The notes beneath the pieces are model-generated. The model did not search any database. It had not been told where the DNA came from and worked only from the letters and a program-made list of their open reading frames with translations. A stretch of DNA of 54,043 nt from a virus (Duplodnaviria; Caudoviricetes), in the IMG/VR virus record IMGVR_UViG_3300046836_000171, positions 1 to 54,043 of that record; one strand, written 5' to 3'. Positions 1,756-26,524 of this stretch are shown here, piece after piece. Position numbers and translations under genes: made by a program. Position 1 is the stretch's first letter. Every line of letters starts with the position of its first letter.

Positions 1756-2605
1756 GGTGGGTCGCCTGGGCCTCGATCGCGGCCGCTACATTCGCGGCCC
1801 TGCGCGGGTAAAGGCGAAGGTTCTCGCGCCCGTCCGCCCGAACGTCGGGATCGAGCTGGCCTATCGCCGCGCGCTGATGAGGCTAGTCGATCGGATGCAG
1901 GCGGATATCGACGCGCTGCTGAAGCCGACTTACGGGATGCTGGCGCCGGCGATCGTCGCCCAGGACGCAGCCCCAGCCGTCGAGCTGGCCGGGCTCATGC
2001 GCGGGTTGCGCCGACGCTGGGAAGCGAACTTCGACCGCGCCGCGCCCGAGCTGGCCGCCTACTTCGCCCAGGCCGCCCAGGATCGCAGCTCGCGGACGCT
2101 GAGCGCCATCCTGCGCCGCGCCGGGCTCACGGTGCAGTTCCGCATGACGCCGGCGGCCCAGGAGGTCTACGACGCCGCGGTGATCGAGAACGTCGGGTTG
2201 ATCCGCTCGATCGCCCAGCAGCACCTTCAGGAGGTCGAGGGGATGGTGATGCGCAGCGCCCAGCACGGCCGCGACCTGGGGCCGCTCGCCAAGTCGCTGC
2301 GCGCCCGCTACGGCATCACCAAGCGGCGGGCGGCGCTGATCGCGCGAGACCAAAACAACAAGGCGACCGCGGTCATCACCCGCGTGCGGCAGAAGGAGCT
2401 GGGGATCACGCAGGCGCGGTGGGTCCACAGCCACGCCGGCAAGACGCCGCGGCCGGACCATGTTGCGTTCAGCGAGGGGCGCGGCGGCGGCCCCTACTAC
2501 GACGTCGAGAAGGGCGCGCTGATCAGCGGCGAAAGGATTTTCCCCGGCGAGTTAATCAACTGCCGGTGTGTGTCCCGGTCGGTCATTCCCGGTTTCGGTG
2601 TATAA
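1736..2605 (+). CDS. Minor head protein, SPP1 gp7 / Mu gpF (MuF) family
   Basis: RAALIARDQNNK, W.HS...PRPDH and PGELINCRC motifs; no C-terminal toxin extension. Confidence 0.92.
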   Translation: MSLSPAKVGRLGLDRGRYIRGPARVKAKVLAPVRPNVGIELAYRRALMRLVDRMQADIDALLKPTYGMLAPAIVAQDAAPAVELAGLMRGLRRRWEANFDRAAPELAAYFAQAAQDRSSRTLSAILRRAGLTVQFRMTPAAQEVYDAAVIENVGLIRSIAQQHLQEVEGMVMRSAQHGRDLGPLAKSLRARYGITKRRAALIARDQNNKATAVITRVRQKELGITQARWVHSHAGKTPRPDHVAFSEGRGGGPYYDVEKGALISGERIFPGELINCRCVSRSVIPGFGV

Positions 2606-2800
2606 CGCCGGTTTCGGGCGGGTTGCCAAAAGGGACGATGCCCTAGAAGCCCCAGGGATGCACGTACAGGGCCGTTTGACTTCCCTGATATCATCCTACC
2701 GCCCCACCCCGTGTTCACGTTTGTTCCCTTTTTCGGGTTGTATCGCCTCTCTACTCAGGGGAGACTCGGCAAGATCATGCCCCGCCCCGCGATGAACCGC

Positions 2801-2830
2801 TTGACGTCTCGCTGGACGTGAGTCCATAAG
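2801..2830 (+). promoter_or_regulatory. Putative sigma70-type promoter for the small RNA
   Basis: TTGACG (2801-2806), 18-nt spacer, CATAAG (2825-2830), directly upstream of a structured element. Confidence 0.5.
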
Positions 2831-2836
2831 GCGGGG

Positions 2837-2933
2837 CGCTCGGTTGCTTTCCCCTTCCCCTAAAGCCCCCCCAGCCCCGGAAGGGCCGCCGAGCCCGGCC
2901 CCCGCGTCCACCGGCGCGGGGGCCTTCGCTTTT
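2837..2933 (+). ncRNA. Candidate structured small RNA with a C-rich loop
   Basis: Closing stem GCTCGG(2838-43)/CCGAGC(2889-94); hairpin GCTTT-[CCCCTTCCCCT]-AAAGC; hairpin GCCC-[CGGAA]-GGGC; ends in a terminator; intergenic. Confidence 0.55.
2897..2933 (+). terminator. Intrinsic terminator
   Basis: GGCCCCCGCGTC-CACC-GGCGCGGGGGCC stem (one G-U pair) followed by TTCGCTTTT. Confidence 0.7.
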
Positions 2934-2959
2934 CGGGGTGGCGTGATAGCGTCCGATTC

Positions 2960-3388
2960 ATGGCGACATTTGCGAAGCGCGCGACACCCGGTCAGGCGGC
3001 GATCCTCCGCATGATCGAGGGCGGCATCAAAAGCGCCCAGCACGCCCACCCCGAAATCATCATCAGCCCGCGGCATCGCACGTCGATCGCCAAGCGGGCG
3101 GCAGGGCTAATCTCGGCGGCGACGCCGGGCTTGGTGTCGGCGGCATCGCGCCCGCCGATAGCATCGCCGGACGGACACTTCTCAGACCCGACCGGCGGCC
3201 GTCGATCCATTGTGGGGGTCGAGGGCAGGGCGGGAACGGGCCAGCTAACTGACCGTTCCCGCCTGGGTCCGCTGCGCAGCCTGCGCCGGCAGATCGAGCG
3301 CGATCTGTGGGCGGTCGATGACTTGGCCGCGCGCAAGGCGTATGTGCATACCCTTCGGCTGATCGCCGAGCTGGGGGTGCGCAAGTGA
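2960..3388 (+). CDS. Hypothetical protein
   Basis: ATG ORF with GTGA overlap into the protease gene. Confidence 0.6.
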
Positions 3389-4965
3389 CCATCGCCGATC
3401 TTGAACGCATCCTGGCGGCTGATCGGGCGGTGCTGGCCTATGACCCGCTGAAGCCCGGCAAGAGCCGCGAGGTCATCAGCGCCAACATCGGCGAGCTGGT
3501 GCGCGCCGGCCATGCCGTCAAGCAGGCGGCCGCCATCGCCTACAAGGAGGCGGGCGAGGATTGCGAGACCTTCAGCGAGGATGAGCTGACCGGGATCGCC
3601 AGCCGCGCGCTGCTGGCGGGCGCCAGCGACCGGATCGCGTTCGACTTCGACACCGCGCGCCACACCGACGTCGATGGGCGACTGCATGTCGCGGTCAGCC
3701 ACATCAGCAAGGCGACGGTGAATCCCTACTACGGGCGGGAGATTCCCAACGCCGAAGCGCTCGGGCTCGATCCCGGCAGGGTCTACCATCTGCTGCGAGA
3801 CCCCGAAGAGCTGCGCCGGGCGGCGGCCACGTCGAACAACTTGCAACTATTGATGCAGCACGTCCCGGTCAACGCGGACGATCCGAAGAAAGAAATCACG
3901 GTCGGCTCCACCGGGACCGATGCCGCCTTCAATAGTCCGTACCTCGACAACTCTCTGGTTGTTTGGGATTCGGCCGCGATCGAGGCGATCAAATCTAAAA
4001 AGCAGCGCGAGCTTAGCTGTGCGTATCGATATATAGCGGACATGACCCCCGGAACCTACCAGGGCTTGCGGTACGACGGGGTGATGCGCAATATCGAGTT
4101 CAACCACGTCGCACTCGTAGACAGGGGCCGCGCCGGCTCTGACGTCTGCGTCGGTGATCAGGACCCAGGGGCGAACATGCTCAAGCCGATTTCCTCGCGT
4201 AAGGCGCTGCTGGTCTCGGGCGCGATCCGCGCCATGGTGAAGCCGCTGCTGGCCGCCGACGCGGCGATCGACTTCAGCGCCATCGTGGAGGGCGTCACCG
4301 CCGCCGCCTACGACTCGAAGGTCATCGCCGAGCGCGTGGCCGCCGCCACCAAGGGCAAGCTGAAGCCCGACGCCGACCTGAAGCCTCTCGCCGTCGCGCT
4401 CGACGCGATGGAAGACGAAGAGGATGAGGGCGCCGAAGACGACGAAATCGACGGCGAGCCCGACGATGACGACGACAAGGGCGAGGGCGGCGAAGAGGGC
4501 GGCGAGGGCGGCGGCGACAAGAAGGCGCGGGACAAGCGCGCCCGCGACAAGAAGGCGAAGGATAAGGCCGCCCGCGACAAGAAGGCGCGCGACGAAGCCG
4601 AAGCTGCGGCCCGCGAGGAAGACGACAAGGAAGACAAGTCGATGGACCGCAAGGCGACCGACCGCGCGATCCAGATGGCGCTCGACGCCCGCGATCAGCG
4701 CTACGCCGCGCAAGAGGCGGTGCGGCCGTTCATCGGCGCGCTCGCCAACCCGCCCGAGACCGCCGGCGGCGTCTACAAGCTGGCGCTCGACCACTTCGGC
4801 ATCGACACCAAGGGCCTGCCCGAGGCGGCCATGAAGCCGACGTTCGACGCCGTGAAGGCGCACCAGCGCCAGCCGGGCCAGCGCCGCGAGCGCATCGCCC
4901 AGGACGGCGCCAAGGGCGCCACCACCATGTTCCCGGCCATGGGCCGGATTCGCCAAGCAGGTTAA
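3385..4965 (+). CDS. DUF2213-family prohead protease/scaffold with N-terminal extension
   Basis: [24 protein letters not shown] and [12 protein letters not shown] motifs; acidic/charged scaffold C-terminus; position upstream of the capsid genes. Confidence 0.9.
4519..4593 (+). repeat. Five imperfect 15-bp coding tandem repeats (KKARD-type)
   Basis: Encodes [25 protein letters not shown]. Confidence 0.85.
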
Positions 4966-4977: not shown

Positions 4978-5910
4978 ATGACGGGCTTCCAAACCCAGGT
5001 GAACTATCAGCAAGCGCCGGCGGTCCCCGGCGACTTCGCCACCACGAACCCGCGCGCCACCGTGATCGCCGGCCCCGGCGCGCTGGTGGCGGGACCGTCC
5101 GGCGTCACGGTCGGCCGCTTCGGCTGGGTCGATCCGGCCACGCAAACGCTGGTGTCGAACGGCGGCGCAGGCAAGCCGAACGGCTTCGTCGGCAACCACC
5201 ACAACGCGCTGATCACCACCTACCTCGCCGAGACGTCGCTGGTGATCCCCGGCGGTTTCGAGCTGTTCCTGTGGGCCTACGGCGACTTCTGGATGAAGAA
5301 CGACTCTTCGACCGAAGCGCTGCCCGGCCAGAAGATTTTCGCCTCGCAGACCACCGGCCAAGCCTCGCAGCTCGCCGCGGCGGGTACGCAGCCGAGCGGC
5401 GGCGCGTCCGTCACCGGCTCGATTGCCGCCTCGACCGCCAGCGTCACCGGCTCGATCGCCAACGATATCCTGACCGTCACCGTGGTGGGCTCGGGCGCGA
5501 TCGTGGTCGGCGGAACGCTCAGCGGCTCGGGCGTCGCCACCGGGACGATGGTCACGGCGCAGCTCACCGGCACGCCGGGCGGCATCGGGACCTATCTGGT
5601 GTCGATCCCCGAGCAGACGGTGGCCTCGACCACCATCAGCGAGACCTACGGGACGCTGACCGTCTCGGCGGTCGGCTCGGGCGCCCTTTCCGTGGGCGAC
5701 GTCATCAGCGGCTCCGGTGTCACCGCCGGGACCTACATCACGGCGCTGGGGACCGGCGCGGGCGGGACGGGGACCTACATCGTCACCCCGAACACCGTCG
5801 TCTCCTCGACCACGATCACCGCCAACGCGACGGTGGAGACCGATTGGTACGTCGGCAGCTTCGCCGCACCGGGCGAGCTGATGAAGCTTACGCATCGAGC
5901 CCTGGGGTAA
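4978..5910 (+). CDS. Capsid cement/decoration protein with two inserted beta modules
   Basis: [16 protein letters not shown]...GVTVGRFGW...GDFW, ending ETDWYVGS...GELMK; lies between protease and capsid. Confidence 0.85.
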
Positions 5911-9188: not shown

Positions 9189-9925
9189 GCGCCTACCTCG
9201 ACTTCACCGAAGCCCAGGCGCTCACCGTGCTGCGCAGCTTCCTGCTGAGCATCCTTCCGCCAATCGAGGTTGTCCGCGGCCAGATCAACCGGGTCGGCGA
9301 GCCCACCGCCGGCGACTTCGTGGTGATGACGCCGATCCTGCGCACGCGCCTCGAGACGAACACGCCGACCTACATGGACGCAGTTTTCACCGGCTCGATC
9401 GCGGCGACCACGCTCACGGTCTCGGCGGTGGCGCACGGCTCGATCCTTGTCGGCGCACCCGTCGCGCCCGCGCCCGGCGGCCACTCGGTCGCCGATGAGA
9501 CCTACGTCGTCGCCCAGCTCACCGGCTCCGTGCCTGGAGACGTCGGGACCTACCGGGTGAGCGTCAGCCAGACGGTCGCCAGCGGCGGGCTGCTGGCCGG
9601 CGTGGTCGAGACGTTGCAGCCGACGCAGCTCACCGTCCAGCTCGACGTCCACGGCCCGGCCAGCGGCGACAACGCGCAGATCATCGCGACGCTGTTTCGA
9701 GACCCGATCGCCTGTCAGGCTTTCCGCGCTTCCGGCTTTCCGACGCAACCGCTCTACGCCTCCGACCCTGCGCAACGGCCCTTCCAAAACGCCCAGGATC
9801 AGATCGAATATCGATGGGGCGTCGATGCGGTGATTCAGGTAAACCCCGCCGTCTCGACTCTCCAGCAGTTCGCGGCTAGCCTCGCCGCAACGCTTGTCAG
9901 CGTCGATGCGACCTACCCGCCTTAA
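9185..9925 (+). CDS. Tail terminator/neck protein with an inserted beta module
   Basis: GQ.NRV.EP...FVVMTP, VQLDVHGP.S.DNA, PLYA.DP and EYRW motifs; ATGA overlap. Confidence 0.8.
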   Translation: MSAYLDFTEAQALTVLRSFLLSILPPIEVVRGQINRVGEPTAGDFVVMTPILRTRLETNTPTYMDAVFTGSIAATTLTVSAVAHGSILVGAPVAPAPGGHSVADETYVVAQLTGSVPGDVGTYRVSVSQTVASGGLLAGVVETLQPTQLTVQLDVHGPASGDNAQIIATLFRDPIACQAFRASGFPTQPLYASDPAQRPFQNAQDQIEYRWGVDAVIQVNPAVSTLQQFAASLAATLVSVDATYPP

Positions 9926-9937: not shown

Positions 9938-11656
9938 ATGAGTGTTCAGCTCGCGATCCCGGCTTCGCAGCTTGTCGCTGTCAACCCCGGCGTCATCACG
10001 GCCGCCGGCGCGGCCGCCGATCTGTTGGGGCTGTTCCTGACCGAGTCGACGCGGGTTCCGATCGGGGCCGTCAACAGCTTCCCCACGCAAAGCGCCGTGG
10101 CCGCCTACTTCGGCGGCAACTCGGCCGAAGCGGCCAAGGCCGCCGTCTACTTCCTGGGCTTCGACAACTCGGCCCTGAAGCCGGCGGCGATGCTCTTCGC
10201 GCAATGCCCCTACGCGGGGCCGGTGGCCGCCTACCTGCGCGGCGGCAACATCAGCGGGCTGACGCTGACCCAACTCCAGGCGATCAGCGGCGTCATCACC
10301 CTGACGATCGACGGGCATCCCTTTACGTCCGGCAACATCAACCTGTCGGGCGCGACGTCCTTCTCGGATGCGGCCGCCACCATTCAGACCGCGCTCGGCG
10401 CGTCCGACGCGACCGTCACGGGCTCGATCGCCGCGACCACCCTCACCGTGAGCGCGGTCGGCGCTGGCGCGCTGGCGGTGGGACAGGTGATCAGCGGCTC
10501 GGGCATCACGGTCGGGACCCGGATCACCGCCCTGGGCTCGGGCTCGGGCGGGACCGGGACCTACACGGTCGCCCCCTCGCAGAGCGCCAGCTCGACCAGC
10601 ATCACCGCCGGCGCGGTCGGCGTCAGCTTCGACAGTCAGTCCGGCGCGTTCGTGATCACCGCCGGGACGCCCGACGACACCGGCTCGATCACCTTCGCCA
10701 GCGGCTCAGCGGCCGCCGGCCTCATGCTGACGTCGGCGACGGGCGCCGTCCTCAGCCAAGGCGCTGATCAGGTGGGCTCCGACGTCACGCCGGCCGAGTT
10801 CATGGACGGGATCGTGGACGTGACGACCAATTGGGCGACGCTGGTCACGGTGTTCGCCCCGATCACCGCCGACAAGGTGGCGTTCGCCGATTGGGTCAAC
10901 GCCCAGAACAACCGCTTCGTCTACGCCATGTGGGACACCGACATTACCGCGACGGAGTCCAACGACTCGGCGTCGGCCGGCGCGCAGATCATCGCCAAGG
11001 GCGACTCGGGGACGATCCCGATCTACGAGCCCAGCGACCTGAACCACGCGGCGTTCGTCGCCGGCTACTTCGCGTCGATCGACTTCACCCAGCCGAACGG
11101 CCGCGTGACGCTCGCCTACCGCAAGCAGCAAGGACTCACGGTCGGCGTCACCAACCAGACGACCGCCGCCCAGCTCTTGCTGAACGGTTACAACTTTTAT
11201 GGCGAATACTCGACGTCGAACGCCGACTTCAACCTGTTCCAGAACGGCTCGATCACCGGCCCGTTCGCCTGGGCGGACAGCTACGCGAACCAGATTTGGC
11301 TGAACGCCCAGCTCCAGCTCGCGCTGCTGACGCTCCTGCAACAGACCTTCTCGATCCCGTACAATCAGGAGGGCTACAACCTGATCGCCGCGGCCGCCGC
11401 GGACCCGATCAACGCCGCCCTCGCCTTCGGCGCCATCCGCGCCGGCGTGACGCTCAGCCAAGCCGAAATCGCGGAAGTGAACAACGCCGCCGGGCTCGAC
11501 GTCGCCACGACGCTGCAAAATCGCGGCTGGTATCTCCAGATCAAGGATGCGGACCCGAGCGTTCGCATCGCGCGGGGATCGCCGCCGATCACGTTCTGGT
11601 ACATGGACGGCCAGAGCGTCCAGAAGATCACTCTGGACTCGGTCGAAATCCAGTAG
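9938..11656 (+). CDS. Contractile tail sheath (DUF3383-like)
   Basis: IPAS.LV.V.PGVI, V..YFG..S.E, NGYNFYG.Y, W.DSY.NQIWL, IPYN..GY and FWYMDG.SVQ.I motifs. Confidence 0.93.
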   Translation: MSVQLAIPASQLVAVNPGVITAAGAAADLLGLFLTESTRVPIGAVNSFPTQSAVAAYFGGNSAEAAKAAVYFLGFDNSALKPAAMLFAQCPYAGPVAAYLRGGNISGLTLTQLQAISGVITLTIDGHPFTSGNINLSGATSFSDAAATIQTALGASDATVTGSIAATTLTVSAVGAGALAVGQVISGSGITVGTRITALGSGSGGTGTYTVAPSQSASSTSITAGAVGVSFDSQSGAFVITAGTPDDTGSITFASGSAAAGLMLTSATGAVLSQGADQVGSDVTPAEFMDGIVDVTTNWATLVTVFAPITADKVAFADWVNAQNNRFVYAMWDTDITATESNDSASAGAQIIAKGDSGTIPIYEPSDLNHAAFVAGYFASIDFTQPNGRVTLAYRKQQGLTVGVTNQTTAAQLLLNGYNFYGEYSTSNADFNLFQNGSITGPFAWADSYANQIWLNAQLQLALLTLLQQTFSIPYNQEGYNLIAAAAADPINAALAFGAIRAGVTLSQAEIAEVNNAAGLDVATTLQNRGWYLQIKDADPSVRIARGSPPITFWYMDGQSVQKITLDSVEIQ

Positions 11657-12112: not shown

Positions 12113-12115
12113 ACC

Positions 12116-12149
12116 CTGGGTCAAATCTGACCCGGATTTGACCCAGATT
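12116..12149. repeat. Intergenic inverted repeat overlapping an 11-bp tandem repeat
   Basis: CTGGGTCAAATC(12116-27)/GATTTGACCCAG(12135-46); TGACCCGGATT-TGACCCAGATT. Confidence 0.8.
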
Positions 12150-12162
12150 TGAGGTAGCGCGC

Positions 12163-12788: not shown

Positions 12789-14498
12789 GTGGCCGACGTC
12801 GTAGACGCCTTCGTTGTCACGCTGGGGCTGAAGGACGATGATTTCGTTCGTCACGCCCGCATCGTGCTTGAGCTCCAAAAGAAGATGCGCGAGGAAGCGC
12901 ATCAGCAGACCAAGGAGACCCAGGAAAACGCGGCGAAGTCGGTCGCCAGCTTCGCCTCGATCAAGCGCGAAGTGCTGGGGCTAACCAGCCTGATCCTGGG
13001 CGGGATGGGGATCACCGAGTTCGTCCAGAAGACGATCGCGCTCACCGCCAACGTCGGCCGCCTCAGCACGATCCTGGGCCAATCGACCGAACAGATCAGC
13101 GCGTGGCAGGGCGCGATCCGCGCGATGGGCGGGACGTCCGAAGAGGCGTCGGGCGATCTGATGAAGATCGTCCAGGCGTTCGAAGATATCCAGCTCACCG
13201 GCAACAGCCCGATGATCCCGGTGCTGCGCCAGCTCGGGTTCGGGCTCGATGACCTGAAGGACCCGACCGCCTTCCTGCTGAAGCTGAGCGACCGCCTCTC
13301 GGCCATGCCGGACAAGCGCGAGGCGTTCAACCTGGGCTCGCGGCTGGGGCTCAGCCCCGAAATGGTCAACCTGCTGATCCAGGGACGCAAGGTCACGCAG
13401 GAATATCTCGACGCAGCCGCCAAGGCGTACCCGATCCACCAGCGCGACGCGGCCGCCGCGATCGAGGCGCAGAAGCAATTCAGCCTGCTGCGGGACTCAT
13501 GGCAACGGCTCGGGAACACCGTGCTGGTGGAGCTGGCGCCCTCGCTGATCAAGCTGGCGGACGGGCTTGAGGGCATCGCGCTCTTCCTGAACCAGAATCC
13601 GGCGCTGGCGATGACCGGCTTTGGGGTGGCGATGTTCTTCGCCGCGTCGGGCGCGTTCCGTCTCGCCGCCGGCTTGGCGGCCGCCGGCGCGGCCAACATC
13701 GCCACGATCGCGCGCATCCTCGCCTTGCTGGCTGGCGTGCCTGGGGCCGCCGTGGCCGGCGGCGCGGCGCTCAGCCTGATCCCCGGCAGGGCGCGCGGAT
13801 CGCTGGCGGGCGCGGGCGCGGGCCGCTCGATCGATGAACAGATCGCGGCGCTGCAAAAGCAGCTCGCCGACCCCGACGCCCCCAAAGCCTACGTTCAGCG
13901 CCGGCTGGCCGAGCTTCTCGCCAAGCGCGCCGTTCTCGGCGGCAAGGCCGACTTCGCGACGCCGATCGGCGCGGGGGCCGTTCCCGCCCAGCTCGCCGCC
14001 GGCGGGTCGGTTCCGGGTCAGGTGGCCGCGTTCTTCCAGGCGCACGGCGCGAGCGCGGCCGGCGCGGCCGGGATCGGCGCGGGCGTCGCCGCCGAAGGCG
14101 GGAGCGAGTTCGCGCGCGACCAGTATGACAGCCGCGGACGCTACGCCTACGGCGTCTTCCAACTGCGCGGCGCGCTCCAGAAGAAGCTGTTCGCGCAATA
14201 CGGGCCGAACGCCAACCTCGCCCAGCAGCTTCAGTTCGTGCTGGGCCAGCTCAAGACTGATCCCAGCCTGGGGGGCGCGTCGATCTTCGGCGCCACGAAC
14301 CCGGTCGCCGCGCTTCAGACCTTCATCGCGCAGTTCTTGCGCCCGGGGCGCGGCGCGGCCGGCGATCTGGAGCGGGGCGCGCGGGCGCTGCATATCGGGA
14401 CATTGATCATTCACGCCGGCGCGGGCGCTGACGGGCGGCAGATCGCCCGCGACCTTCAGGCCGAGCTGATCGCCCAGGGCAACAGGGGGATGAGCTGA
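12789..14498 (+). CDS. Tape measure protein with a C-terminal lysozyme-like domain
   Basis: Position after the chaperone; helical Ala-rich body; C-terminal AAGIGAGVAAEGG...AYGVFQ..G...QL.FV..L resembles tail lysozyme domains. Confidence 0.85.
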   Translation: MADVVDAFVVTLGLKDDDFVRHARIVLELQKKMREEAHQQTKETQENAAKSVASFASIKREVLGLTSLILGGMGITEFVQKTIALTANVGRLSTILGQSTEQISAWQGAIRAMGGTSEEASGDLMKIVQAFEDIQLTGNSPMIPVLRQLGFGLDDLKDPTAFLLKLSDRLSAMPDKREAFNLGSRLGLSPEMVNLLIQGRKVTQEYLDAAAKAYPIHQRDAAAAIEAQKQFSLLRDSWQRLGNTVLVELAPSLIKLADGLEGIALFLNQNPALAMTGFGVAMFFAASGAFRLAAGLAAAGAANIATIARILALLAGVPGAAVAGGAALSLIPGRARGSLAGAGAGRSIDEQIAALQKQLADPDAPKAYVQRRLAELLAKRAVLGGKADFATPIGAGAVPAQLAAGGSVPGQVAAFFQAHGASAAGAAGIGAGVAAEGGSEFARDQYDSRGRYAYGVFQLRGALQKKLFAQYGPNANLAQQLQFVLGQLKTDPSLGGASIFGATNPVAALQTFIAQFLRPGRGAAGDLERGARALHIGTLIIHAGAGADGRQIARDLQAELIAQGNRGMS

Positions 14499-15400
14499 TG
14501 CCGCTCTATCCGATCGTTCCCGATCTGCCCGGTGTCCCGCCGGTCGCGCGCTCGGCGGTCAACGCGCTCGGGCTTCTCGCCAGCGGCCAAGGCACGATCC
14601 GCGACACCACGCTGACCGTCAGCCAGCTTGTCGGCGCAGCGCTCAACCCCGGCCAGTTCCTCAGCGGGGCCGGGCTGGCGTCGGGCGTGCAGATCGTCGC
14701 TCAGCTCGCGGGCGTCACTGGCGGCCTTGGCGACTACCGGCTCAGCCAAGCGGCCAACATCGCCGGGCTGGCGTTCGCCACGTCGCACTTCTTCGCCCCG
14801 ACGCTGGCGACGTTCGACGGGATCAGCTCGGCGCTCATCGGCGGCGCGGCCGGCGATCGGCCTCAGTGGGGCGTCTTCGATGACGCCGGCGAGCTGGTGA
14901 TCGCGCCTGACAGCGTGGTAGATTTCGACCTGCGCGCCGAACAGCGCCTCGCGATCTTCCCGATCGAGAAGGGGTCCTTCGGGTCCTACAACAAGGTGGC
15001 GATGCCTTTCGAGGCGCGCATGAAGATGAACAAGGCCGGGACCGAGTCCGACCGGACGGACTTCCTGAACGCCTGCGACGCCGCGCTGAAGAGCCTGAAG
15101 CTCTACACAGCGGTGACGCCCGAAGTGACCTATGACAACGCCAGCGTGGAACACTACGACTACCGGCGCACCAGCGAGAACGGCGTGCAGCTCATCACCG
15201 TCGAGCTGTGGCTTCAGGAAGTCCGCGTCGCCGCGTCGCCCACCTTCAGCAATACCAAGACGCCCCAGGGGCAGGACGCCCAGCAGGACGGCGCGGTGCA
15301 GGCGCAGACGCCGACCACCCAGCAGGCCAGCCAAGCCAGCGCCGCGCTCGACGCCAACGGGCCGCTGGGCGGCGTGGGGGGACCACCGGGCGATGACTGA
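14498..15400 (+). CDS. Baseplate/tube-initiator protein with an inserted beta module
   Basis: VP.LPGVPP, QWG.FD, PIEKGSF.SYNKV..P, VTPE.TY and YDY.R motifs. Confidence 0.8.
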   Translation: MPLYPIVPDLPGVPPVARSAVNALGLLASGQGTIRDTTLTVSQLVGAALNPGQFLSGAGLASGVQIVAQLAGVTGGLGDYRLSQAANIAGLAFATSHFFAPTLATFDGISSALIGGAAGDRPQWGVFDDAGELVIAPDSVVDFDLRAEQRLAIFPIEKGSFGSYNKVAMPFEARMKMNKAGTESDRTDFLNACDAALKSLKLYTAVTPEVTYDNASVEHYDYRRTSENGVQLITVELWLQEVRVAASPTFSNTKTPQGQDAQQDGAVQAQTPTTQQASQASAALDANGPLGGVGGPPGDD

Positions 15401-18361: not shown

Positions 18362-19783
18362 ATGACCACGAACGTCCCCGTCCCGGCCTTCGGCCCTATC
18401 GGCTTCGTCTCGCCGGCCGAGTCCGCGATCCTCGCCGGCGTGCTGGCCGACCTTCAGGCGGCGTTCGGCGGCAACCTGAACCCGAACCTTGAGACGCCCC
18501 AGGGGCAGATCGCCAGCTCGCTGACCGCGATCATCGGCGACTTCTACGGGCTCTTCACGTTCTACACCCAGCAGGTTGACCCGGCCTTCGCCAGCGGCCG
18601 GATGCAGGACGCCATCGCGCGCATCTACTTCCTGACGCGCAAGCCCGCCCAGGCGACGGTTGTCCAGGCGCTATGCACCGGGCTGGCGAACACCCCGATC
18701 CCCACCGGCTCGATCGCCAAGGCGAGCGACGGGAACCTCTACGAATGCACGACCGGCGGGGTGATCCCGCTTGGCGGCTCGATCACGCTCCCGTTCGCCT
18801 GCGTCACCGCCGGCCCGATCCCCTGCCCGGCCAACAGCCTGACCGTGATCTATCAGGCGATTCCCGGCTGGGACACGATCAACAATCCCTCAGACGGGGT
18901 GATCGGCGAGAACATCGAGACCCGCGAGGATTTCGAGTTTCGCCGCGAGGCGTCGGTGGCGGCGAACTCAGTGGGCGCGATGGGCGCGGTGATCGGCGCG
19001 GTGGCGGCGGTCGCCGGCGTGCTGGACTTCTTCGGCTACAACAATGGGACCGGCTCGCCGGTGACGATCGGCGCGGTGACGATCCCGGCCCATACGATCT
19101 TCGTGTGCGTCGAGGGCGGCGCGCAGATCGATATCGCGCAGGCGATCTTGTCGAAGAAGGCTCCAGGCTGCGGGACCTACGGCAATACGGCCGTCACCGC
19201 CTATGACAGCAACCCGCTCTATTCGGCCCCGATCCCCTACACGATCAACTTCGAAGTCCCGACGCCGACGCCGATCCTCTTCGCCGTCACGCTGGCGAAC
19301 AACATCAACGTGCCTGCCGACGCGCAGCAGCTCGTAGCCGGCGCGATCCTGAACGCCTTCTCAGGGTCGGACGGCGGCCCGCGGGCGCGGATCGGCTCGA
19401 CCCTCTTCGCCAGCCGCTATTACACCGGCATTGCGGCGCTAGGCTCGTGGGTCAACATCGTCTCGATCCTGATCGGCGCGCCGACCTCGCCGGGCGCCAG
19501 CTTCACCGCCTCGATCGCCTCGACGGTGATGACCGTCACCGCGGTGGCGTCGGGGACGCTGGCGGTGGGGCAGACCGTCGTCGGGGCCGGGGTCTCGCCA
19601 GGGACCATCATAGCCTCGCTCGGGACCGGGAGCGGCGGCACCGGGACCTACAACCTCAACCTTCCCCAGACGGTTTCCAGCGAGGCGATGACCAGTATCC
19701 TGCCGGCGCTCAACTCGCTCACGCTGGGGATCGATCAGGTTCCGACGATCAACGTCGCCGACGTGTCGCTAGCGCTCGTCTGA
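18362..19783 (+). CDS. Baseplate J-like wedge protein
   Basis: [38 protein letters not shown] and E.R..FE.RR motifs. Confidence 0.9.
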
Positions 19784-19831: not shown

Positions 19832-20287
19832 ATGGCCGTACAAGGCCCCTTCACGATCTTCGACGCCGCCAAGCTCAAGGTGCTGAACGGCAGCGGGACG
19901 CCGATCAATCTCCCGGCCGACACCTTCAAGGCGGTTCTCTGCACGTCGGCCCAGGCGCTTGCGCCGAGCTTCACCGGCGGTTCGGGCGCCGCCCGCTACG
20001 CCGACCTGACCGCCGAGCTGCCGACCGCGAACGGCTACACCGTGGGCGGGATCACGCTCACGTCGGTGACGCTCACGCAGACCGGCCCCGTCGTCACCTG
20101 GGACGCCGATGACCTGACGTGGACGCTGAGCGGGCCGATCACGTTCAAGTATCTGGTGATCTACGACAATACGCTGGGGACCAAAGACCTTGTGGCCTTC
20201 TGCGACTTCGACACGTCCGGCGGCTCCGTGACCGCGCTCGCCGGCCCGCTGGTGGTCACGGTGAACGGCATCGAGACGTTGCAATAA
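19832..20287 (+). CDS. Tail fibre-associated virion protein
   Basis: DTFK..L, EL.T.NGYT.GG.TL, WDADD.TW and LV.F.DF motifs. Confidence 0.7.
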   Translation: MAVQGPFTIFDAAKLKVLNGSGTPINLPADTFKAVLCTSAQALAPSFTGGSGAARYADLTAELPTANGYTVGGITLTSVTLTQTGPVVTWDADDLTWTLSGPITFKYLVIYDNTLGTKDLVAFCDFDTSGGSVTALAGPLVVTVNGIETLQ

Positions 20288-20288
20288 G

Positions 20289-21839
20289 ATGGCTTGGGAC
20301 TCGGAGTTCACCGAAGGGTTCGACAAGTACGGTCAGCCGGGCAACGGCACCCTCAACGCGCTCTTGCTCGGCGGCGAGTGGACGTCGATCGGCGGCGTCA
20401 ACGTCTCGACGGTCTACAATCTGTCGCTGGTGGCCGGACTTTCTGGCGGGCAGGCGCTCAAGCTCACCAGCACCAATTTCGGCGCAATAGCCTACGGCCC
20501 GAACAAGACGCTCGGCGCGAACTACGCGCAGCACATCGGCGGGCGGTGGTTCAAAGCGGACCTTCTCAGCACCTATGTGCTGTGTTCGTTTCAGGACTCG
20601 CTGACGTCGCAATGCTGCATCACCGTCGAGACCACCGGCAAGTTGGGTCTGCGTTCGGGCGGCCCCACCGGGACGCTGCTGGCGTCGTCGTCGCTATCGG
20701 TCTCGGCGAACTCGGTGCATTGCGCCGAGTGGTCGGTGACGATCAATCACACGACCGGCGCGGCCACGGTCTATCTGGACGGCGCGGCGTCGGGGCTGAC
20801 CTTCTCGGGGAACACCCGCGGCGGGACCGCCAATGACTACTACAACGGCATTTCCTACGGCATGTTCAACAGCAGCACCGGATCGGTGCTGACGGTCGAT
20901 AACGAATACGATCGCTTCTATCTGGTGGCGGGCGCCGACACGCCGGCGCTCGACTGCCCGCGCGTCGAGACGCAGTTCCCGGTCAGCGATGCGTCGGTGC
21001 AGTTCACGCCGGGGGCCGGGGTGCTGGGGGCCGACTACAGCATCACCGCGAACACCAACGCGCCGGGCGCAAACGAACTCTTCCTGCGGCAGTTCACGCC
21101 CCAGGTGAACGCGACGATCAACAGCGTCTCGATCCTGCCCGAAGCGACCAGCGCCGGCGCGAAGTTCAAGGCGGTGATCTATTCGGACAGCGCCGGCGCG
21201 CCCAACGCGCTGCTGTCCAGCGGGACCGAAGTGGTCGGCGCCACGTCGGGGACGGTGCTGACCGGCCCGCTGGTGACGCCCCAGGCGCTCACCGCCGGGA
21301 CGCCCTATTGGATCGGCTTCATCACCGACACGTCGGTGGCGCTGGCGCAAGTGGACACCACCACCACCGGATCGAAGGCGGCGAACACCTACGGCTCGGG
21401 CGCGCCTGGGACCGCGCCGGGGATGACCGGCCTTCAGCCGTCGTGGATCGTCTTCGGCAACTGCACCGGGCAGGCGCATAATTGGGCGCAGGTTGCGGCC
21501 GGCTTCAGCAACCCGCCGCTCGGCGATCCCAGCTACAATTCCGACAGCACCGTAGGCCACGCCGACCTCTTCAACTTCCCGGCGCTGACGTCCGCGCCGA
21601 CCACCGTCCACACCGTCGCCGTCAAGGCGTACATGGAGCGGTCGGACGCCGGCGCGCGGACGGTGAACCTTCAGACCCATTCCGGCAGCACCACGGGCAA
21701 CGGCAGTACGGCGGGGATCACGCCGGCGACCTCCTACGGCTTTCAGTCGAGCTACTTCGATCAGGACCCGAACGGCCCGGCCGCCTGGACGCCGACCGGC
21801 GTCAACGCCGCTACGAGCGGATATCAGATCGCCACCTAA
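20289..21839 (+). CDS. Putative receptor-binding / tail-associated protein
   Basis: EGFD.Y N-terminus, lectin-like beta-rich body, C-terminal DPN..AAWT...VNA...G. Confidence 0.7.
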   Translation: MAWDSEFTEGFDKYGQPGNGTLNALLLGGEWTSIGGVNVSTVYNLSLVAGLSGGQALKLTSTNFGAIAYGPNKTLGANYAQHIGGRWFKADLLSTYVLCSFQDSLTSQCCITVETTGKLGLRSGGPTGTLLASSSLSVSANSVHCAEWSVTINHTTGAATVYLDGAASGLTFSGNTRGGTANDYYNGISYGMFNSSTGSVLTVDNEYDRFYLVAGADTPALDCPRVETQFPVSDASVQFTPGAGVLGADYSITANTNAPGANELFLRQFTPQVNATINSVSILPEATSAGAKFKAVIYSDSAGAPNALLSSGTEVVGATSGTVLTGPLVTPQALTAGTPYWIGFITDTSVALAQVDTTTTGSKAANTYGSGAPGTAPGMTGLQPSWIVFGNCTGQAHNWAQVAAGFSNPPLGDPSYNSDSTVGHADLFNFPALTSAPTTVHTVAVKAYMERSDAGARTVNLQTHSGSTTGNGSTAGITPATSYGFQSSYFDQDPNGPAAWTPTGVNAATSGYQIAT

Positions 21840-21842
21840 GCC

Positions 21843-22814
21843 ATGACCGACGCTCGCATAAGCGGCGTCGCCCGCGAAGTTCTCGTCGCCGAGAATGCGC
21901 CGCTGCGCGTCAGCCAGCTCGCCCGCGAAGTGCTGGTCGCCGAGAACGCCCCCTTGCGCGTCTCGCGCCTCGCCCGCGAAGTGCTGTGGGGGCTTCTGCC
22001 GCCGCTGCGGGTCTCGGGGCTGGTGCGCGAAGTGCTGCTTTCGAGCGCGTGGGCGCCGGCGCACGGCTCGATGATCTGGGCCGGCGGGATGCCGGTGCTG
22101 GGCGCGTTCGCGCCGGCGGCCGGCTCGATGGTCTTCACCGGCGGGATGCCGGCAATCTCGCACCCGACGCGCTTCACCGTCCCGCCCGGCGCGCTGACCT
22201 TCATCGGCAAGATTCCGGTCCTGACCAATGACGCCGAAGCGCCGTTCGATTGGCGCGCGACCGTCATCAGCCAGTACCAAGCCAGCCCGATCATCCTTCA
22301 GATCGTGGCGAACATGGCCGCCACCATCGACCCGCGGCTCAACTTCGACGCCTTCTTCAATCTGATCTGGAACGTGCAGACCGCGCAGGGGATCGGGCTC
22401 GATATCTGGGGCCGGATTGTGGGATGCAGCCGCATCATCGAGGTCCCCAGCGCCGGCGCGTTCCTGGGCTTCGAAGAGGCAGGCGATCCGACCGCGCGCA
22501 CGCCCTGGAACCAAGCGCCGTGGTTCTCGGGCGCCACGGCGTCGAGCTCGTTCCCGCTGACCGATGACGCCTTCCGGCTGCTGATCTACGCGAAGGCGCT
22601 GGCGAACATCACGGACGGCTCGATCCCCGGCCTCAACGCCATCCTGTTGACCCTCTTCCCCGGCCGGGGTGACGCCTTCGTCACGGACGGCGGCGACATG
22701 ACCATGACCTACGAGTTCGAGTTTCCGCTCACGCCGGTGGAGCTGGCTATCGTAAGCTCGGCCGGTATCCTCCCGACGCCGACCGGCGTCTCCGCAACGG
22801 TGGTTCAAAGCTGA
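21843..22814 (+). CDS. DUF2612-like baseplate wedge protein with a repetitive N-terminal extension
   Basis: TVISQY..SP, WN..TA.G.GLDIWGRIVG, L.DD.FR.LI..KA..NI and LP.P.GV motifs. Confidence 0.88.
   Translation: MTDARISGVAREVLVAENAPLRVSQLAREVLVAENAPLRVSRLAREVLWGLLPPLRVSGLVREVLLSSAWAPAHGSMIWAGGMPVLGAFAPAAGSMVFTGGMPAISHPTRFTVPPGALTFIGKIPVLTNDAEAPFDWRATVISQYQASPIILQIVANMAATIDPRLNFDAFFNLIWNVQTAQGIGLDIWGRIVGCSRIIEVPSAGAFLGFEEAGDPTARTPWNQAPWFSGATASSSFPLTDDAFRLLIYAKALANITDGSIPGLNAILLTLFPGRGDAFVTDGGDMTMTYEFEFPLTPVELAIVSSAGILPTPTGVSATVVQS
21856..22040 (+). repeat. Four imperfect 51-bp (17-aa) tandem repeats
   Basis: RISGVAREVLVAENAPL / RVSQLAREVLVAENAPL / RVSRLAREVLWGLLPPL / RVSGLVREVLL. Confidence 0.9.
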
Positions 22815-23719
22815 TGCTGGCGAGCGCCATCCCAACGAAGTTCCCGATCCCCTGGGGCAACAGCGCGGGGGGCAGCTTCATCCGGCCGATCCCGGTCGCT
22901 TCGCAGATCGGGATTCAGCCCGGCGCGGCCTCGCTGACCGATGGCTTCCCGCCGCTCAACTTCCTGCCGGACGGCTCGGGCGGCATCCCGTCCTTCGGTC
23001 AGGACGAAAACGGCATCCTCAAGCAGATCACCCAATGGTGTCAGTGGGTCGGTGCGGGCGGCCCGATCGCCTATGACCCGACCTTCTCGGCGGCGATCGG
23101 CGGCTATCCGAAGGGCGCGCTGCTGGCGGACTCGACCACGCTGGGCGGCTTCTGGGTCTCGACGGTGGACAACAATACGTCGGACCCCGACACCGGCGGC
23201 GCGAATTGGCTGGCGGTGGGTCTGTCTCAGATGCTCGCCGGCGACGTCTCGGGGCCGCTCGGCGCGACCGTGCTTGGGAACGGCAAGGTCACGACGGCGA
23301 AGATCGCCAACAGCGCGGTGACGAACACCCTGCTGGCGAACATGCCATCGGCGACGATCAAGGCGAACATCACCGGCGGCCCGGCGCCGCCGACCGACGC
23401 CACGGTCAGCCAAATCCTCTCGATGCTGAACATCGGCATGGGCGGGTCGAAGGCGACGCCGGGCTACATGCTGGTCCCCGGCGGGTGGATTCTCCAGTGG
23501 ACGACCTTCAGCCTGGGCGCGGGGACCGGCTCGACGGTCAACGTGACGTGGCCGATCACCTTCCCCACCGCGGTGCTTCCCCAGGGCTTCATTCTGGTGG
23601 ATCACGCGGCCGACCAGCAGATCGGGACCAACAGCGTCACCACGACGGGCGCCCAGGTTCAGAAGGGCAACATGGACTTCACCGCGCGCTCTGGTCTCGT
23701 GGCCGCGCTCGGCTGGTAG
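22814..23719 (+). CDS. Tail fibre protein (gp53-like C-terminus)
   Basis: AS.TDGFPPL, GG.P..GQD.NGIL, AIGGYPKGA and GY..VPGG.ILQW...WPI.FP...ALGW motifs. Confidence 0.88.
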   Translation: MLASAIPTKFPIPWGNSAGGSFIRPIPVASQIGIQPGAASLTDGFPPLNFLPDGSGGIPSFGQDENGILKQITQWCQWVGAGGPIAYDPTFSAAIGGYPKGALLADSTTLGGFWVSTVDNNTSDPDTGGANWLAVGLSQMLAGDVSGPLGATVLGNGKVTTAKIANSAVTNTLLANMPSATIKANITGGPAPPTDATVSQILSMLNIGMGGSKATPGYMLVPGGWILQWTTFSLGAGTGSTVNVTWPITFPTAVLPQGFILVDHAADQQIGTNSVTTTGAQVQKGNMDFTARSGLVAALGW

Positions 23720-23730
23720 GGAGGCGAGGA

Positions 23731-24129
23731 ATGTTCTACTGGAGCCCTTCGACGGGCGGCTTCTATCACCCCGACGTCCACGGGCCGAAGCTCGCCCCGG
23801 TGGCGCTGAAGCGCGGGCTCTTCCGCAAGCCACTGACGACGGCTCGGCAGGTTGCGCCCGGCTCGATCCCGCCGGACGTGATCGAGGTCAGCGACGAAGA
23901 ACATGCGGCGCTGCTGAAGGGGCGCGGCGAGGGGCGGATGATCGTGCTGGTGGACGGGCGCGCGGCGCTGGCCGAGCCCGAACCGGCGGCGGCCGAGACG
24001 CAGCCCCGCTACGCCCCGCCGGGCGAGCTGTTCGCCATGCTCTACCGCGACCTGAAGGCGGCCGGGATCGATGGCGAGTTCGTGAAGCACGTCGAGGCGG
24101 CCCGCGCTGCTATGACGCGCGACGAATGA
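23731..24129 (+). CDS. Tail fibre assembly chaperone-like protein
   Basis: MFYWSPSTGGFY..DVHG...IP.D..EVS.EE..ALL.G...G..I motif; AGGA RBS. Confidence 0.8.
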   Translation: MFYWSPSTGGFYHPDVHGPKLAPVALKRGLFRKPLTTARQVAPGSIPPDVIEVSDEEHAALLKGRGEGRMIVLVDGRAALAEPEPAAAETQPRYAPPGELFAMLYRDLKAAGIDGEFVKHVEAARAAMTRDE

Positions 24130-24180
24130 CGCCACTGTCACATTGGGGCGGAATCGTGCAAACCGGGACTCGCGTCTGCG

Positions 24181-24507
24181 TTGACGACCTGGGGGGGGAG
24201 CATCACGTTGCCGATTTGGGCGCAAGCTATCATTGCGGCGTTCGGCGCGCTTCCGGGGATCGGGGCGGCGATCGGCGCGTTCTTCTGGTTCGGGCGACTC
24301 AGCGCGAGGCTCGACGCCGTGGAACATGAACTCACCGACCTGAAGGATATCGGCCGCGAGGTCGCGACCATCGCCGAGCGGACCAAGAACACGGCCGACA
24401 CCGTGAACGGGATCGGGACCGACGTGCGCGCCGTAACCCGCCACCTTCTCGATGAGGGGCGGGTCTTCGCCCGCCAGCTCGTGCGCGATCACCAGGGCGC
24501 AAACTAG
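24181..24507 (+). CDS. Membrane protein with coiled coil (holin/antiholin-like)
   Basis: N-terminal hydrophobic helix followed by a coiled coil; first gene of the lysis cassette; start uncertain. Confidence 0.55.
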   Translation: MTTWGGSITLPIWAQAIIAAFGALPGIGAAIGAFFWFGRLSARLDAVEHELTDLKDIGREVATIAERTKNTADTVNGIGTDVRAVTRHLLDEGRVFARQLVRDHQGAN

Positions 24508-24558
24508 ACGCGCGCAGCGCGAGAAGCTAAGGCGTGTCGTCACACGGGACGAATCGCC

Positions 24559-24927
24559 TTGCCCTGGACCTACCAGATTTCGACCGGCAAGCTGTGGCAC
24601 GACTCCACCTATGAGGGGTCCGGCTACTCTGGCCGCCGCTCGGGGCTGAACAACCCGGCGCTGACCGGCGTCGAGGGCGTCGGCCCGATCCCCGCCGGGG
24701 ATTGGACGATCCACGATCCGCTGAATCCGCCGGACCACCTGGGGCCGCTGGCGATGCCGCTCACGCCGATGGACGGGACCGATGCGCGCGGCCGGTCGGC
24801 CTTCTTCATTCACGGCGACAATTCCGAAGCGGACCACACCGCCAGCCACGGCTGCGTCATCTTGGGCCGCGCGTTTCGTCAGGCGATCATCGCCAGCCAA
24901 GACCGTTGGTTCAAGGTCATCGACTAG
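24559..24927 (+). CDS. DUF2778/Tlde1-family L,D-transpeptidase-like protein (putative endolysin)
   Basis: WTY..STG, GYSG...G.NNP, GPIP.G.W.I and GRS.F.IHGD......ASHGC.I motifs; TTG start. Confidence 0.82.
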   Translation: MPWTYQISTGKLWHDSTYEGSGYSGRRSGLNNPALTGVEGVGPIPAGDWTIHDPLNPPDHLGPLAMPLTPMDGTDARGRSAFFIHGDNSEADHTASHGCVILGRAFRQAIIASQDRWFKVID

Positions 24928-24935
24928 GGACACCC

Positions 24936-25361
24936 ATGCACCTTCTGCTGATCGCCGCCGTCGCCACCGCGACCGCCTCCATCGACCTGTCGCCCATTCT
25001 GGCCTTCCTGTTGCAGATCGCCGGGCTCGTGCTGACCGGGATCGTCGGGTGGCTGGGGACGCGCCTCGCCCTCTACTTCCACGTCTCGACGCAAAGCCAG
25101 CTCTTCGCGAACGTGCTGGGCGCCGTCGATCGCGGGATCGCCTTCGCCCAGCAGAACCTCGCCGCCAGGATCGCCAACGCCACCGGCGACAAGATCGCGC
25201 TCGGCAGCGCCGTCCAGGCGCAGGCGGTGAACTACGTCGTCAGCAAGCTTCCCGACACCCTGTCGAAGCTGGGGATCACGCCGGCGCACGTCGCCGATCT
25301 GGTGACTGCAAAGCTGGGCTCTGTCCCGGCCGCGCCGCCCCCGTCCGCGCCAGCCGGCTGA
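24936..25361 (+). CDS. Putative holin
   Basis: Hydrophobic N-terminal helices, then AV..GI.FA...AV.YV....PD.L.KLGI; lies in the lysis cassette. Confidence 0.65.
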   Translation: MHLLLIAAVATATASIDLSPILAFLLQIAGLVLTGIVGWLGTRLALYFHVSTQSQLFANVLGAVDRGIAFAQQNLAARIANATGDKIALGSAVQAQAVNYVVSKLPDTLSKLGITPAHVADLVTAKLGSVPAAPPPSAPAG

Positions 25362-25369
25362 CCGCCCCC

Positions 25370-25609
25370 GTGTGGGCCAGCCTCGCATCGTTCCTCGCGC
25401 CCGCGCTGAACACGCTCGTCTTGGCGCTGGCCGCCGGGCTCGGGCTGTGGATCAAGCAGAAGCAGGACCGCGCGGACGGCGCGGCCGCCGCCGCTGCAAC
25501 CGTGACCGCATCGAGCGCGTTGACGTTGGCGGCGGAAGCCCAGGCTGAAGCGGACGCGCCGAAGACGCTCGGCGGCGCGATCGATAGCCTGAAGAAGGGG
25601 GACTTCTGA
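25370..25609 (+). CDS. Putative inner-membrane spanin
   Basis: One TM helix plus an Ala-rich periplasmic part ending LKKGDF; TGATG coupling to a lipoprotein gene; start uncertain. Confidence 0.6.
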   Translation: MWASLASFLAPALNTLVLALAAGLGLWIKQKQDRADGAAAAAATVTASSALTLAAEAQAEADAPKTLGGAIDSLKKGDF

Positions 25610-25848
25610 TGCGCCGCGCGCTGATCCTCATCGCCGTCGCCCTCGCCGCCTGCCACACTACGGACGTGGCCGTGGCGAAGCGGTGCGTCCCGCTGAAGCC
25701 CTACACGCCGGCTGAACAAGCCGCGGTCGCCGACCAGCTCGACAAGCTCGCCCAGGCCGACCCGGCCTTCGTAGGCTCGCCGGTGGCCGGCATGATCACC
25801 GACTACAAGGCGATGCGCGACGCCGATCGCGCGTGCATCGCCCAATGA
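25609..25848 (+). CDS. Putative outer-membrane spanin lipoprotein
   Basis: MRRALILIAVA-LAAC lipobox; C.PLK.Y...Q...A and DY..MRD..RAC motifs. Confidence 0.75.
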   Translation: MRRALILIAVALAACHTTDVAVAKRCVPLKPYTPAEQAAVADQLDKLAQADPAFVGSPVAGMITDYKAMRDADRACIAQ

Positions 25849-25913
25849 CCCGGCGTCGCGGGAAAGGCTTCGTCCGCGCCGCTCTAGCAGCCGAAGCCGT
25901 AGGAATCCTGATC

Positions 25914-26372: not shown

Positions 26373-26403
26373 CGGGCGCTGGACGCCCAGCAGTCGGCAA
26401 GGG

Positions 26404-26438
26404 AGCGCCGGCGGTCTCTGAGCCGCCGGCGCTTTTTT
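26404..26438 (+). terminator. Intrinsic terminator ending the late operon
   Basis: AGCGCCGGCGG-N8-CCGCCGGCGCT followed by a T run. Confidence 0.9.
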
Positions 26439-26460
26439 GCGCTCTGACCCACATTCCCTG

Positions 26461-26524
26461 TTGCAACGGGGGCTACGTTGCATCATAGTGATGGCGCGGG
26501 AAGGGAAGCCCGCGCGACGTAGGA
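26461..26524 (+). promoter_or_regulatory. Promoter/leader cassette A
   Basis: TTGCAA-N17-CATAGT; TGCAACG-N7-CGTTGCA inverted repeat; hairpin GCGCGGG-AAGGGAAG-CCCGCGC; GACGTAGGA RBS. Confidence 0.75.

Follow-up and report, generated by a model that had tools for sequence, protein, structure and literature searches.

A possible operon boundary with a promoter-proximal terminated leader ahead of the head-tail genes of an uncultured soil myovirus

In phage lambda, the late operon is preceded by the host-type promoter PR', a short structured transcript of ~194 nt (6S RNA) and the strong terminator tR'. In P4 and in P1/P7, immunity is RNA-based and is exerted by the CI RNA and the c4 RNA. These RNAs act at target sites that are longer and paired, and they arise by processing from the operon under their control. 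In the Gifsy-1 prophage, IsrK is made in two forms from one promoter, a short RNA that ends at a terminator and an mRNA that arises by read-through; the short form can act in trans, and it activates the translation of its own read-through form (PMC4825925). The cuckoo/CcsR small RNAs (sRNAs) of Alphaproteobacteria are described as two to four adjacent hairpins, each with a CCUCCUCCC loop (PMC4615179). We analyzed a non-coding element that shares features with each of these systems, at positions 2801-2933 of IMG/VR virus record IMGVR_UViG_3300046836_000171, a stretch of 54,043 bases with ~68% G+C (the whole stretch is called the window below) from a phage described as an uncultured soil myovirus.

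An earlier reading of the letters alone (the sequence-only reading) had taken this element for an sRNA whose exposed loop pairs with hairpin loops in the leaders of the early genes. We find it better explained both as an operon boundary and as the promoter-proximal terminated leader of the head-tail genes. To this tentative reading we give a probability of roughly 0.45.

Promoter-like site and terminator in the gap after the MuF-like gene

The MuF-like head-morphogenesis gene ends at 2605 and is followed by a non-coding gap of 354 nt (2606-2959), in agreement with the ~350 bp estimated by the sequence-only reading. It is the longest gap seen between open reading frames (ORFs) with a coding-type G+C content at third codon positions (GC3). 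No credible ORF was found in the gap in any frame of either strand, read from stop to stop, and no coding-type GC3 signal appears before 2960, so the gap was dropped as coding DNA on either strand.

The element begins with a promoter-like site on the + strand. A -35-like hexamer TTGACG (2801-2806; CTTGACG from 2800), matching five of the six consensus positions, is followed after 18 nt by a -10-like hexamer CATAAG (2825-2830), which matches four of six and lacks the final T; transcription would start near 2836-2838. CTTGAC occurs 15 times on both strands, and three of these sites (2800, 34625, and 47818) are intergenic and face a gene or a transcription unit. The longer pattern CTTGACG-N18-CATRAG has two matches in the window (2800 and 34625) against 0.11 expected, a generous statistic, since the pattern was defined after both sites had been seen. 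The counterpart CTTGACG-N18-CATGAG (34625-34655, + strand) heads the methylase-to-portal operon and lies within the divergent region where this rightward operon must begin. On its 3' side are a C-rich stretch with CTTCCC at 34715 and a 13-bp G+C hairpin (34780-34811) that directly precedes the likely methylase start ATG at 34816. Judged by this resemblance, the promoter at 2801-2830 looks real, but of the operon-heading kind. The promoter claimed by the sequence-only reading holds for the TTGACG hexamer and for a layout that recurs at 34625, but a strict sigma-70 scan rejects it and its -10 is only CATAAG. As a separate observation, ATG 34662, 6 nt past the -10 of the 34625 site, opens a frame of ~52 codons (GC3 ~0.72, counted by hand) with its TGA a few bases beyond 34816 (read by eye), which may be a leaderless upstream ORF.

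The element ends in an intrinsic terminator, T1 (2897-2934, + strand), whose stem-loop (2897-2924) has the predicted 12 pairs, 11 of them G-C, closed by the 4-nt loop UCCA and followed by the tail TTCGCTTTTC with the U tract UUCGCUUUUC. The hairpin has an energy of -27.6 kcal/mol, and the G+C-rich stem, short loop, and U tract are those of an intrinsic (Rho-independent) terminator. T1 is also the first terminator past the MuF stop codon, 290 nt downstream. Its U tract is interrupted after two U (UUCGCUUUU), and its d'Aubenton-Carafa-type score is 19.4 vs 46.3 for T2, the terminator that ends the head-tail-lysis operon (26405-26432, within 26405-26446; a 10-11-bp G+C stem followed by TTTTTT), which fits partial termination at T1. 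Terminator scans of the window returned 26 terminator-like sites against ~24 expected, and T1 is alone in having more than 7 pairs, a distinction that holds for the scan output, since T2, although evident in the sequence, escaped the scan of 20001-40000.

Of the 103 distinct relatives with MuF and the protease on one strand, at least 14 have a terminator-like hairpin between these genes, and in 13 of these 14 the stem is followed after 5-30 nt by the next in-frame start of the protease ORF. For example, in L006, L007, L016, L072, L111, and L112 the stems differ yet remain complementary and are followed by a T run and then by the start codon. The terminators of L006, L007, L012, L016, L072, L096, L102, L111, and L112 are placed like T1, directly before the head-gene block, but they have no sequence similarity to T1, no upstream promoter-plus-60-nt domain, and no downstream orf142. 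They often come without a Shine-Dalgarno sequence, and several junctions (e.g., those of L006 and L112) are too tight to accommodate a promoter or an sRNA. T1 is thus explained independently, as a junction terminator that recurs in relatives. These junctions have a further feature: in relatives from hosts of 42-60% G+C, the hairpin, the T run, and ATTGCC stand directly before the start codon of the head protease (L006:2950-3000, L007:4005-4055, L016:4705-4755, L072:4085-4130, L111:4535-4585, and L112:4270-4325), and in high-G+C relatives, without a Shine-Dalgarno sequence, the distance from TATTGC to ATG is a constant 6-9 nt. Such sites may be terminators that overlap a promoter for a leaderless head mRNA.

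The first ORF on the 3' side of T1 is orf142 (2960-3388, + strand; GC3 0.80), which has no Shine-Dalgarno sequence and overlaps the protease start (GTGA). Neither a promoter nor a Shine-Dalgarno sequence is recognizable in the 35 nt between T1 and the ATG of orf142, and a separate promoter there was dropped as a candidate. Because the 23-kb head-tail operon has no other recognizable promoter and the distance from T1 to the ATG is so short, the head-tail mRNA must cross T1. From the features, the fold preferences described below, the matching promoter at 34625, and the recurrence of junction terminators, we infer an active promoter with a start near 2836-2838, partial termination at T1, and read-through as the source of the head-tail mRNA. 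T1 (2897-2934), at the junction of the MuF and head-protease genes, would close the fibre-MuF transcription unit. The candidate host-type promoter CTTGACG-N18-CATAAG lies ~95 nt before T1 and nearly duplicates the promoter of the replication/packaging operon; transcription from it would first cross the C-rich 60-nt hairpin domain and then reach T1. Polymerases that stop at T1 would leave a ~97-nt RNA as a by-product, and those that are not halted by the interrupted U tract, or that some factor renders resistant to termination, would supply the head-tail operon (2960 to ~26372).

The left part of the gap (2606-2800) is non-coding and apparently unconstrained. Relatives of ~83-90% identity were seen in runs X5 and X6. 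In contigs of two soil/rhizosphere runs, a divergent relative of ~83% identity can be aligned over 2200-2905 (run X5), and its contig has, among the differences listed, five 1-nt deletions (2612, 2665, 2679, 2681, and 2691). The gap shares a 13-nt identity, CCGTTTGACTTCC, between 2672-2684 and 47979-47991, beside leader cassette 3 of the early region described below, and a 10-nt identity, TCCCTGATAT, between 2682-2691 and ~47798-47807 (- strand), in the promoter region of the same cassette; the bases in 2672-2691 shared with the early region overlap the deletions in the relative. The gap may carry scraps of an early-region module, judging from these identities. A candidate promoter at 2676-2693 (TTGACTTCCCTGATATC) was dropped because its spacing is wrong and the relative is deleted at 2679, 2681, and 2691. 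A direct repeat, CGGTTTCGG, occurs twice, 18 nt apart, at 2591-2618 and spans the MuF stop codon.

Predicted RNA and the early leader hairpins

Provided that the promoter fires and T1 stops transcription, the predicted transcript is ~97-98 nt long (2836-2933, + strand). Its C-rich 5' domain of ~60 nt (2838-2894, + strand) forms a long irregular hairpin in the minimum-free-energy (MFE), ensemble, and nascent-chain folds, with a GCUCGGU/GCCGAGC closing helix, a CCCUUC/GAAGGG inner helix, and a C-rich apical loop of ~20 nt. Of 200 shuffles of 2801-2933, 198 fold less well than the actual sequence (z = -2.75). A small transcription unit consisting of a promoter-like site, a structured C-rich domain, and a strong terminator is plausible, and for this reason the ~97-nt RNA may well be made.

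The sequence-only reading had drawn this RNA as a three-way junction in which CCCCTTCCCCT (2851-2861, + strand) is an exposed loop. The segment is present, with CTTCCC at 2854-2859, and the junction can be drawn, with the helices GCUCGG/CCGAGC, GCUUU/AAAGC presenting CCCCUUCCCCU, and GCCC/GGGC presenting CGGAA, but its energy is -46.0 vs -50.7 kcal/mol for the MFE fold, ~4.7 kcal/mol worse. In the favored fold, CCCUUC (2853-2858) pairs with GAAGGG (2881-2886) in both the MFE structure and the ensemble, the unpaired probability of the CCCUUC core is ~0, and forcing the loop-presenting GCUUU/AAAGC helix costs 3.8 kcal/mol of ensemble energy, corresponding to a probability of 0.002. The supposedly exposed loop is therefore predicted to be buried, and it is the apical loop (~2857-2878) that is predicted to be unpaired. 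When the growing chain is folded, the GCUUU/AAAGC helix is seen only at ~36-44 nt and is replaced by 52 nt, GGAAGGG having emerged; because it is displaced in this way, a kinetic trap is unlikely. Opening the hexamer costs 2.6 kcal/mol, which makes the open state minor but not impossible. The second hairpin, GCCC-CGGAA-GGGC (2874-2886, + strand), had been taken for a mimic of the leader hairpins; it can be found in the sequence, but it presents CGGAA on a 4-bp stem, unlike the leaders' (U)GGGAA on 5-7 G+C pairs, and its GGAAGGG is the intramolecular partner of CCCUUCC.

The leader cassettes are likewise real. Five are found at ~26.5 kb (+), 34.5 kb (-), 47.7 kb (-), 49.4 kb (-), and 51.0 kb (-), each with a promoter-like site, a 5-7-bp G+C hairpin, a GGGAA-containing loop, the box (A/G)(C/G)GTAGG, and a start codon. 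The hairpin of cassette 1 (26494-26515, + strand) has the loop AAGGGAAG, and those on the - strand have the loops GGGAA (cassette 2, 34558-34574), CGGGAA (cassette 3, 47765-47780), and UGGGAA (cassettes 4 and 5, 49444-49461 and 51036-51053). Their stems differ in every copy with complementarity kept, and the (U)GGGAA loop and the (A/G)(C/G)GTAGG box are conserved; the alignment confirms GGGAAG as invariant in all five, as had been claimed. This pattern suggests that the leader hairpins are candidate binding sites for an RNA-binding regulator protein, presumably reminiscent of N-type boxB pentaloops or CsrA-type GGA loops. With covarying stems and an invariant purine loop by the ribosome-binding site, they are probably the better lead in the window.

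The complementarity between the predicted RNA and these leaders does not exceed chance for this composition. The RNA is 47% C. Of 20,000 dinucleotide-preserving shuffles of its 98 nt, 29% contain CTTCCC, as do 25% of the shuffles of its first 60 nt and 2.6-4.7% of 98-nt stretches of the genome, depending on the strand. The caveat of the sequence-only reading that a match of 6-7 nt could be chance is borne out, since such a match is at chance level for this composition. The GGGAAG-type matches reach 8 nt in cassette 1, 7 nt in cassette 4, and 6 nt in the other three leaders, and the three 6-nt leaders are absent with this match from the top 20 of the 67 start regions ranked (-60 to +20). Other start regions match better: perfect complementarity to the 5' domain extends over as much as 11 nt at gene 8109, 10 nt at gene 25609, and 9 nt at 24181, 623, and another part of the cassette-2 region.

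Interaction energies, obtained by helix enumeration plus opening energies because whole-molecule RNAduplex gave meaningless long G+C duplexes, point the same way. The CUUCCC:GGGAAG helix is worth -7.9 kcal/mol before opening costs, and after opening both partners the net energy is -0.8 to -2.2 kcal/mol for four leaders. In cassette 1, it is +4.2 kcal/mol for the first GGGAAG copy and -5.3 kcal/mol, the best value, for the second copy in that loop. The hexamer named by the sequence-only reading thus has net energies of -2.2 to +4.2 kcal/mol against the leaders. These values weaken rather than exclude kissing, because the nearest-neighbor model describes kissing complexes poorly. Kissing-loop antisense RNAs are recognized by loops on both partners and by target-specific complementarity beyond chance; here the leader loops are real, the RNA loop is paired, and the complementarity is neither beyond chance nor specific to the leaders.

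Searches for families and homologues gave little. Rfam returned no match at the gathering threshold in the whole window, and at E <= 10 only two chance-level matches in 2500-3100 (9.8 and 9.6 bits vs thresholds of 45). The cuckoo motif with at most one mismatch is absent from 2801-2933, all five of its matches in the window lying elsewhere. Blastn of 2500-3500 against cultured phages gave no match, and blastn of the gap against 201 loci gave no significant match (best E = 0.31), in collections that may lack records very close to the window. MuF relatives reach no more than 58% identity in the viral, genome, and metagenome contigs, and no homologue of the gap was found among them. In genome contigs, the protease query gave no match and the patterns were low-complexity; in viral contigs, the exact 22-mer gave no match and the two-box pattern five unrelated ones. 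Leader-cassette patterns had at least 120, 13, and 3 matches in viral contigs, and none of the matches listed has the promoter-hairpin-Shine-Dalgarno-ATG layout.

Alternative explanations

Several points weigh against an operon boundary with a terminated leader. Besides the generosity of the two-box statistic, the -10 CATAAG is weak, and the strict sigma-70 scan of 2400-3200 found zero promoters, because this -10 lacks its final T. A strong terminator between a promoter and its own operon would be wasteful unless regulated, and no Q-, N-, or other antiterminator family was recognized among the proteins scanned with Pfam and PHROGs (16 + 50 + 43 proteins; many small ORFs gave no match). No local promoter would be needed if transcripts reading through from the fibre-MuF operon upstream supplied the head genes, the terminators of relatives are positional analogues of T1 for which homology is not demonstrated, and no RNA run was listed as containing the window sequence. 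Alternatively, T1 may only end the fibre-MuF operon, with TTGACG and CATAAG present by chance and the rest being decaying DNA at a mosaic junction. The junction terminators of relatives do come without any upstream unit, the left gap is indel-rich in the relative and holds early-region-like scraps, and the strict scan is negative. The gap and orf142 also appear specific to this lineage: orf142 is encoded in none of 80 viral loci, and the protease match begins at most 100 nt from the MuF stop in 51 of the 103 relatives. Against a terminator alone speak the 13.5 specified positions shared with the 34625 promoter, which are unlikely by chance, the exceptional length of the gap, a fold better than nearly all shuffles, and a relative whose contig is still aligned through 2905. 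We regard this simpler account as somewhat unlikely.

An autonomous trans-acting sRNA with other targets, in which the C-rich apical loop (~2857-2878) pairs with G-rich ribosome-binding regions of phage or host, is rather unlikely in our view. The promoter and terminator ~97 nt apart, the 5'-terminal stem, and the stable fold would suit it, as would an apical loop that is predicted to be unpaired and has complements of 9 nt in gene 24181 (CUGGGGGGG, at +8) and of 8 nt before the protease gene (GCUGGGGG, at -15), the adjoining 2871-2881 matching 11 nt at -17 of gene 8109; but matches of 8-11 nt are expected in a genome of 68% G+C. C-rich loops are a common sRNA signature (PMC4615179), but the RNA has no A/U-rich single-stranded Hfq-type site, belongs to no Rfam family at the gathering threshold with nothing relevant at E <= 10, and has no homologue in any of the 201 loci fetched. 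The operon-boundary reading and this one overlap, in that a by-product RNA can also act in trans. Much less probable is the model of the sequence-only reading, in which the CCCCUUCCCCU loop forms a kissing complex with the (U)GGGAA loop of each early leader, or the CGGAA hairpin decoys the leaders' ligand, and the RNA thereby silences the early regulon as a repressor or for exclusion. CUUCCC and the invariant GGGAAG are there, complementarity extends to 8 nt at cassette 1 and 7 nt at cassette 4, and no repressor family was recognized among the scanned phage proteins. Still, the loop-presenting fold is rare and is displaced during transcription, the hexamer is at chance level, the net energies are weak for four leaders and split in cassette 1, three of the five leaders offer 6 nt only, and the mimic hairpin differs from the leader hairpins in loop and stem. 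As the C-rich segment can be opened for only 2.6 kcal/mol, a two-state riboregulator is conceivable, with a closed CCCUUCC/GGAAGGG form and an open three-way junction that would kiss the five leader loops and serve as an RNA-only early switch without a protein repressor; we consider it equally improbable.

Genome setting and comparison with known systems

Pfam and PHROG scans of the window proteins give a myovirus-like layout. On the + strand, fibre-like genes and the MuF-like gene (1736-2605) occupy 51185 to 2605, and the head-tail operon runs from 2960 to ~26372 with orf142, a DUF2213 head protease (3385-4965), the cement protein, the major capsid protein, neck, sheath, tape measure, baseplate, fibre, and further genes. 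Early and DNA-metabolism blocks lie on the - strand (~27.8-34.5 kb and 46.8-50.9 kb), and methylases, a primosomal protein, the terminase, and the portal on the + strand (~34.8-46.5 kb). The ends of the window repeat each other (1-934 and 53110-54043), the first 127 bases being identical and followed by 66 mismatches. From this repeat, the record looks like a circle that was closed by assembly and then ran on into a strain-variant copy; as the two segments are two versions of one DNA, the true genome would be ~53.1 kb. No close cultured phage was found, the capsid protein being less than 60% identical in all 542 records matched. For orf142, there is no Pfam or PHROG match; its database homologues are two, an identical 125-aa form and one at 45% identity (P0002), and orf142 and P0002 as queries gave no match in viral contigs. 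No tRNA or tmRNA was found in the window, and a tRNA-like function of the element was dropped for that reason. CRISPR-repeat mimicry was likewise dropped as a candidate function.

Some further observations concern other genes. A repeated segment matching phrog_38233 and phrog_21413 ("tail fiber"-like) is inserted in five virion proteins (5403-5794, 9387-9429, 10408-10580, 14578-14621, and 19495-19662), namely the cement protein, the neck terminator protein, the sheath, the protein encoded at 14498-15400, and the baseplate wedge protein; by these matches, it appears to be one decoration domain spread over five virion proteins. Between the sheath and tube genes (12113-12162), three GACCC(G/A)GATTTGA-like repeats stand directly before the start codon. 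Further phage products are a peptide deformylase, a DnaN-type sliding clamp with its full three domains, and two small proteins that match the DnaA C-terminal helix-turn-helix (41083-41631, 32975-34114, and 36976-37735), the first of the two DnaA matches being weak (E 0.00069, below Pfam's cut-off).

If the operon-boundary reading is true, the element is routine phage transcription architecture, of use for annotating operons in this lineage. A function of the short RNA in trans would matter more, since very few phages are known to control an entire early regulon through RNA only. The two-state switch, if true, would allow a lysis-lysogeny-like decision or superinfection exclusion without a protein repressor. 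That idea of a small phage RNA silencing early transcripts through repeated leader sites would parallel P4 CI and P1/P7 c4, but the RNA considered here is encoded in the late region, and its match of 6-8 nt does not rise above chance. Like the cuckoo/CcsR sRNAs, the element has a C-rich segment that could pair with ribosome-binding regions rich in purines, and its setting is likewise proteobacterial and high in G+C (PMC4615179); unlike them, it lacks the CCUCCUCCC motif and an Rfam match, and its C-rich hexamer is predicted to be paired. With IsrK it shares the combination of one promoter, a candidate short terminated form, and a putative read-through mRNA (PMC4825925), but sequence and host group are unrelated, and the self-activating pairing is described for IsrK. 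The arrangement also differs from lambda PR'/tR' in that no Q-like antiterminator was found among the scanned proteins and the gene upstream is MuF, not a regulator, and from 6S RNA in that the predicted RNA is ~97 nt. As in lambda PR'/6S/tR', a promoter-like site (2801-2830) and T1 stand directly upstream of a long structural operon, and the element would be a known kind of phage transcription signal, in a new instance from an uncultured lineage.

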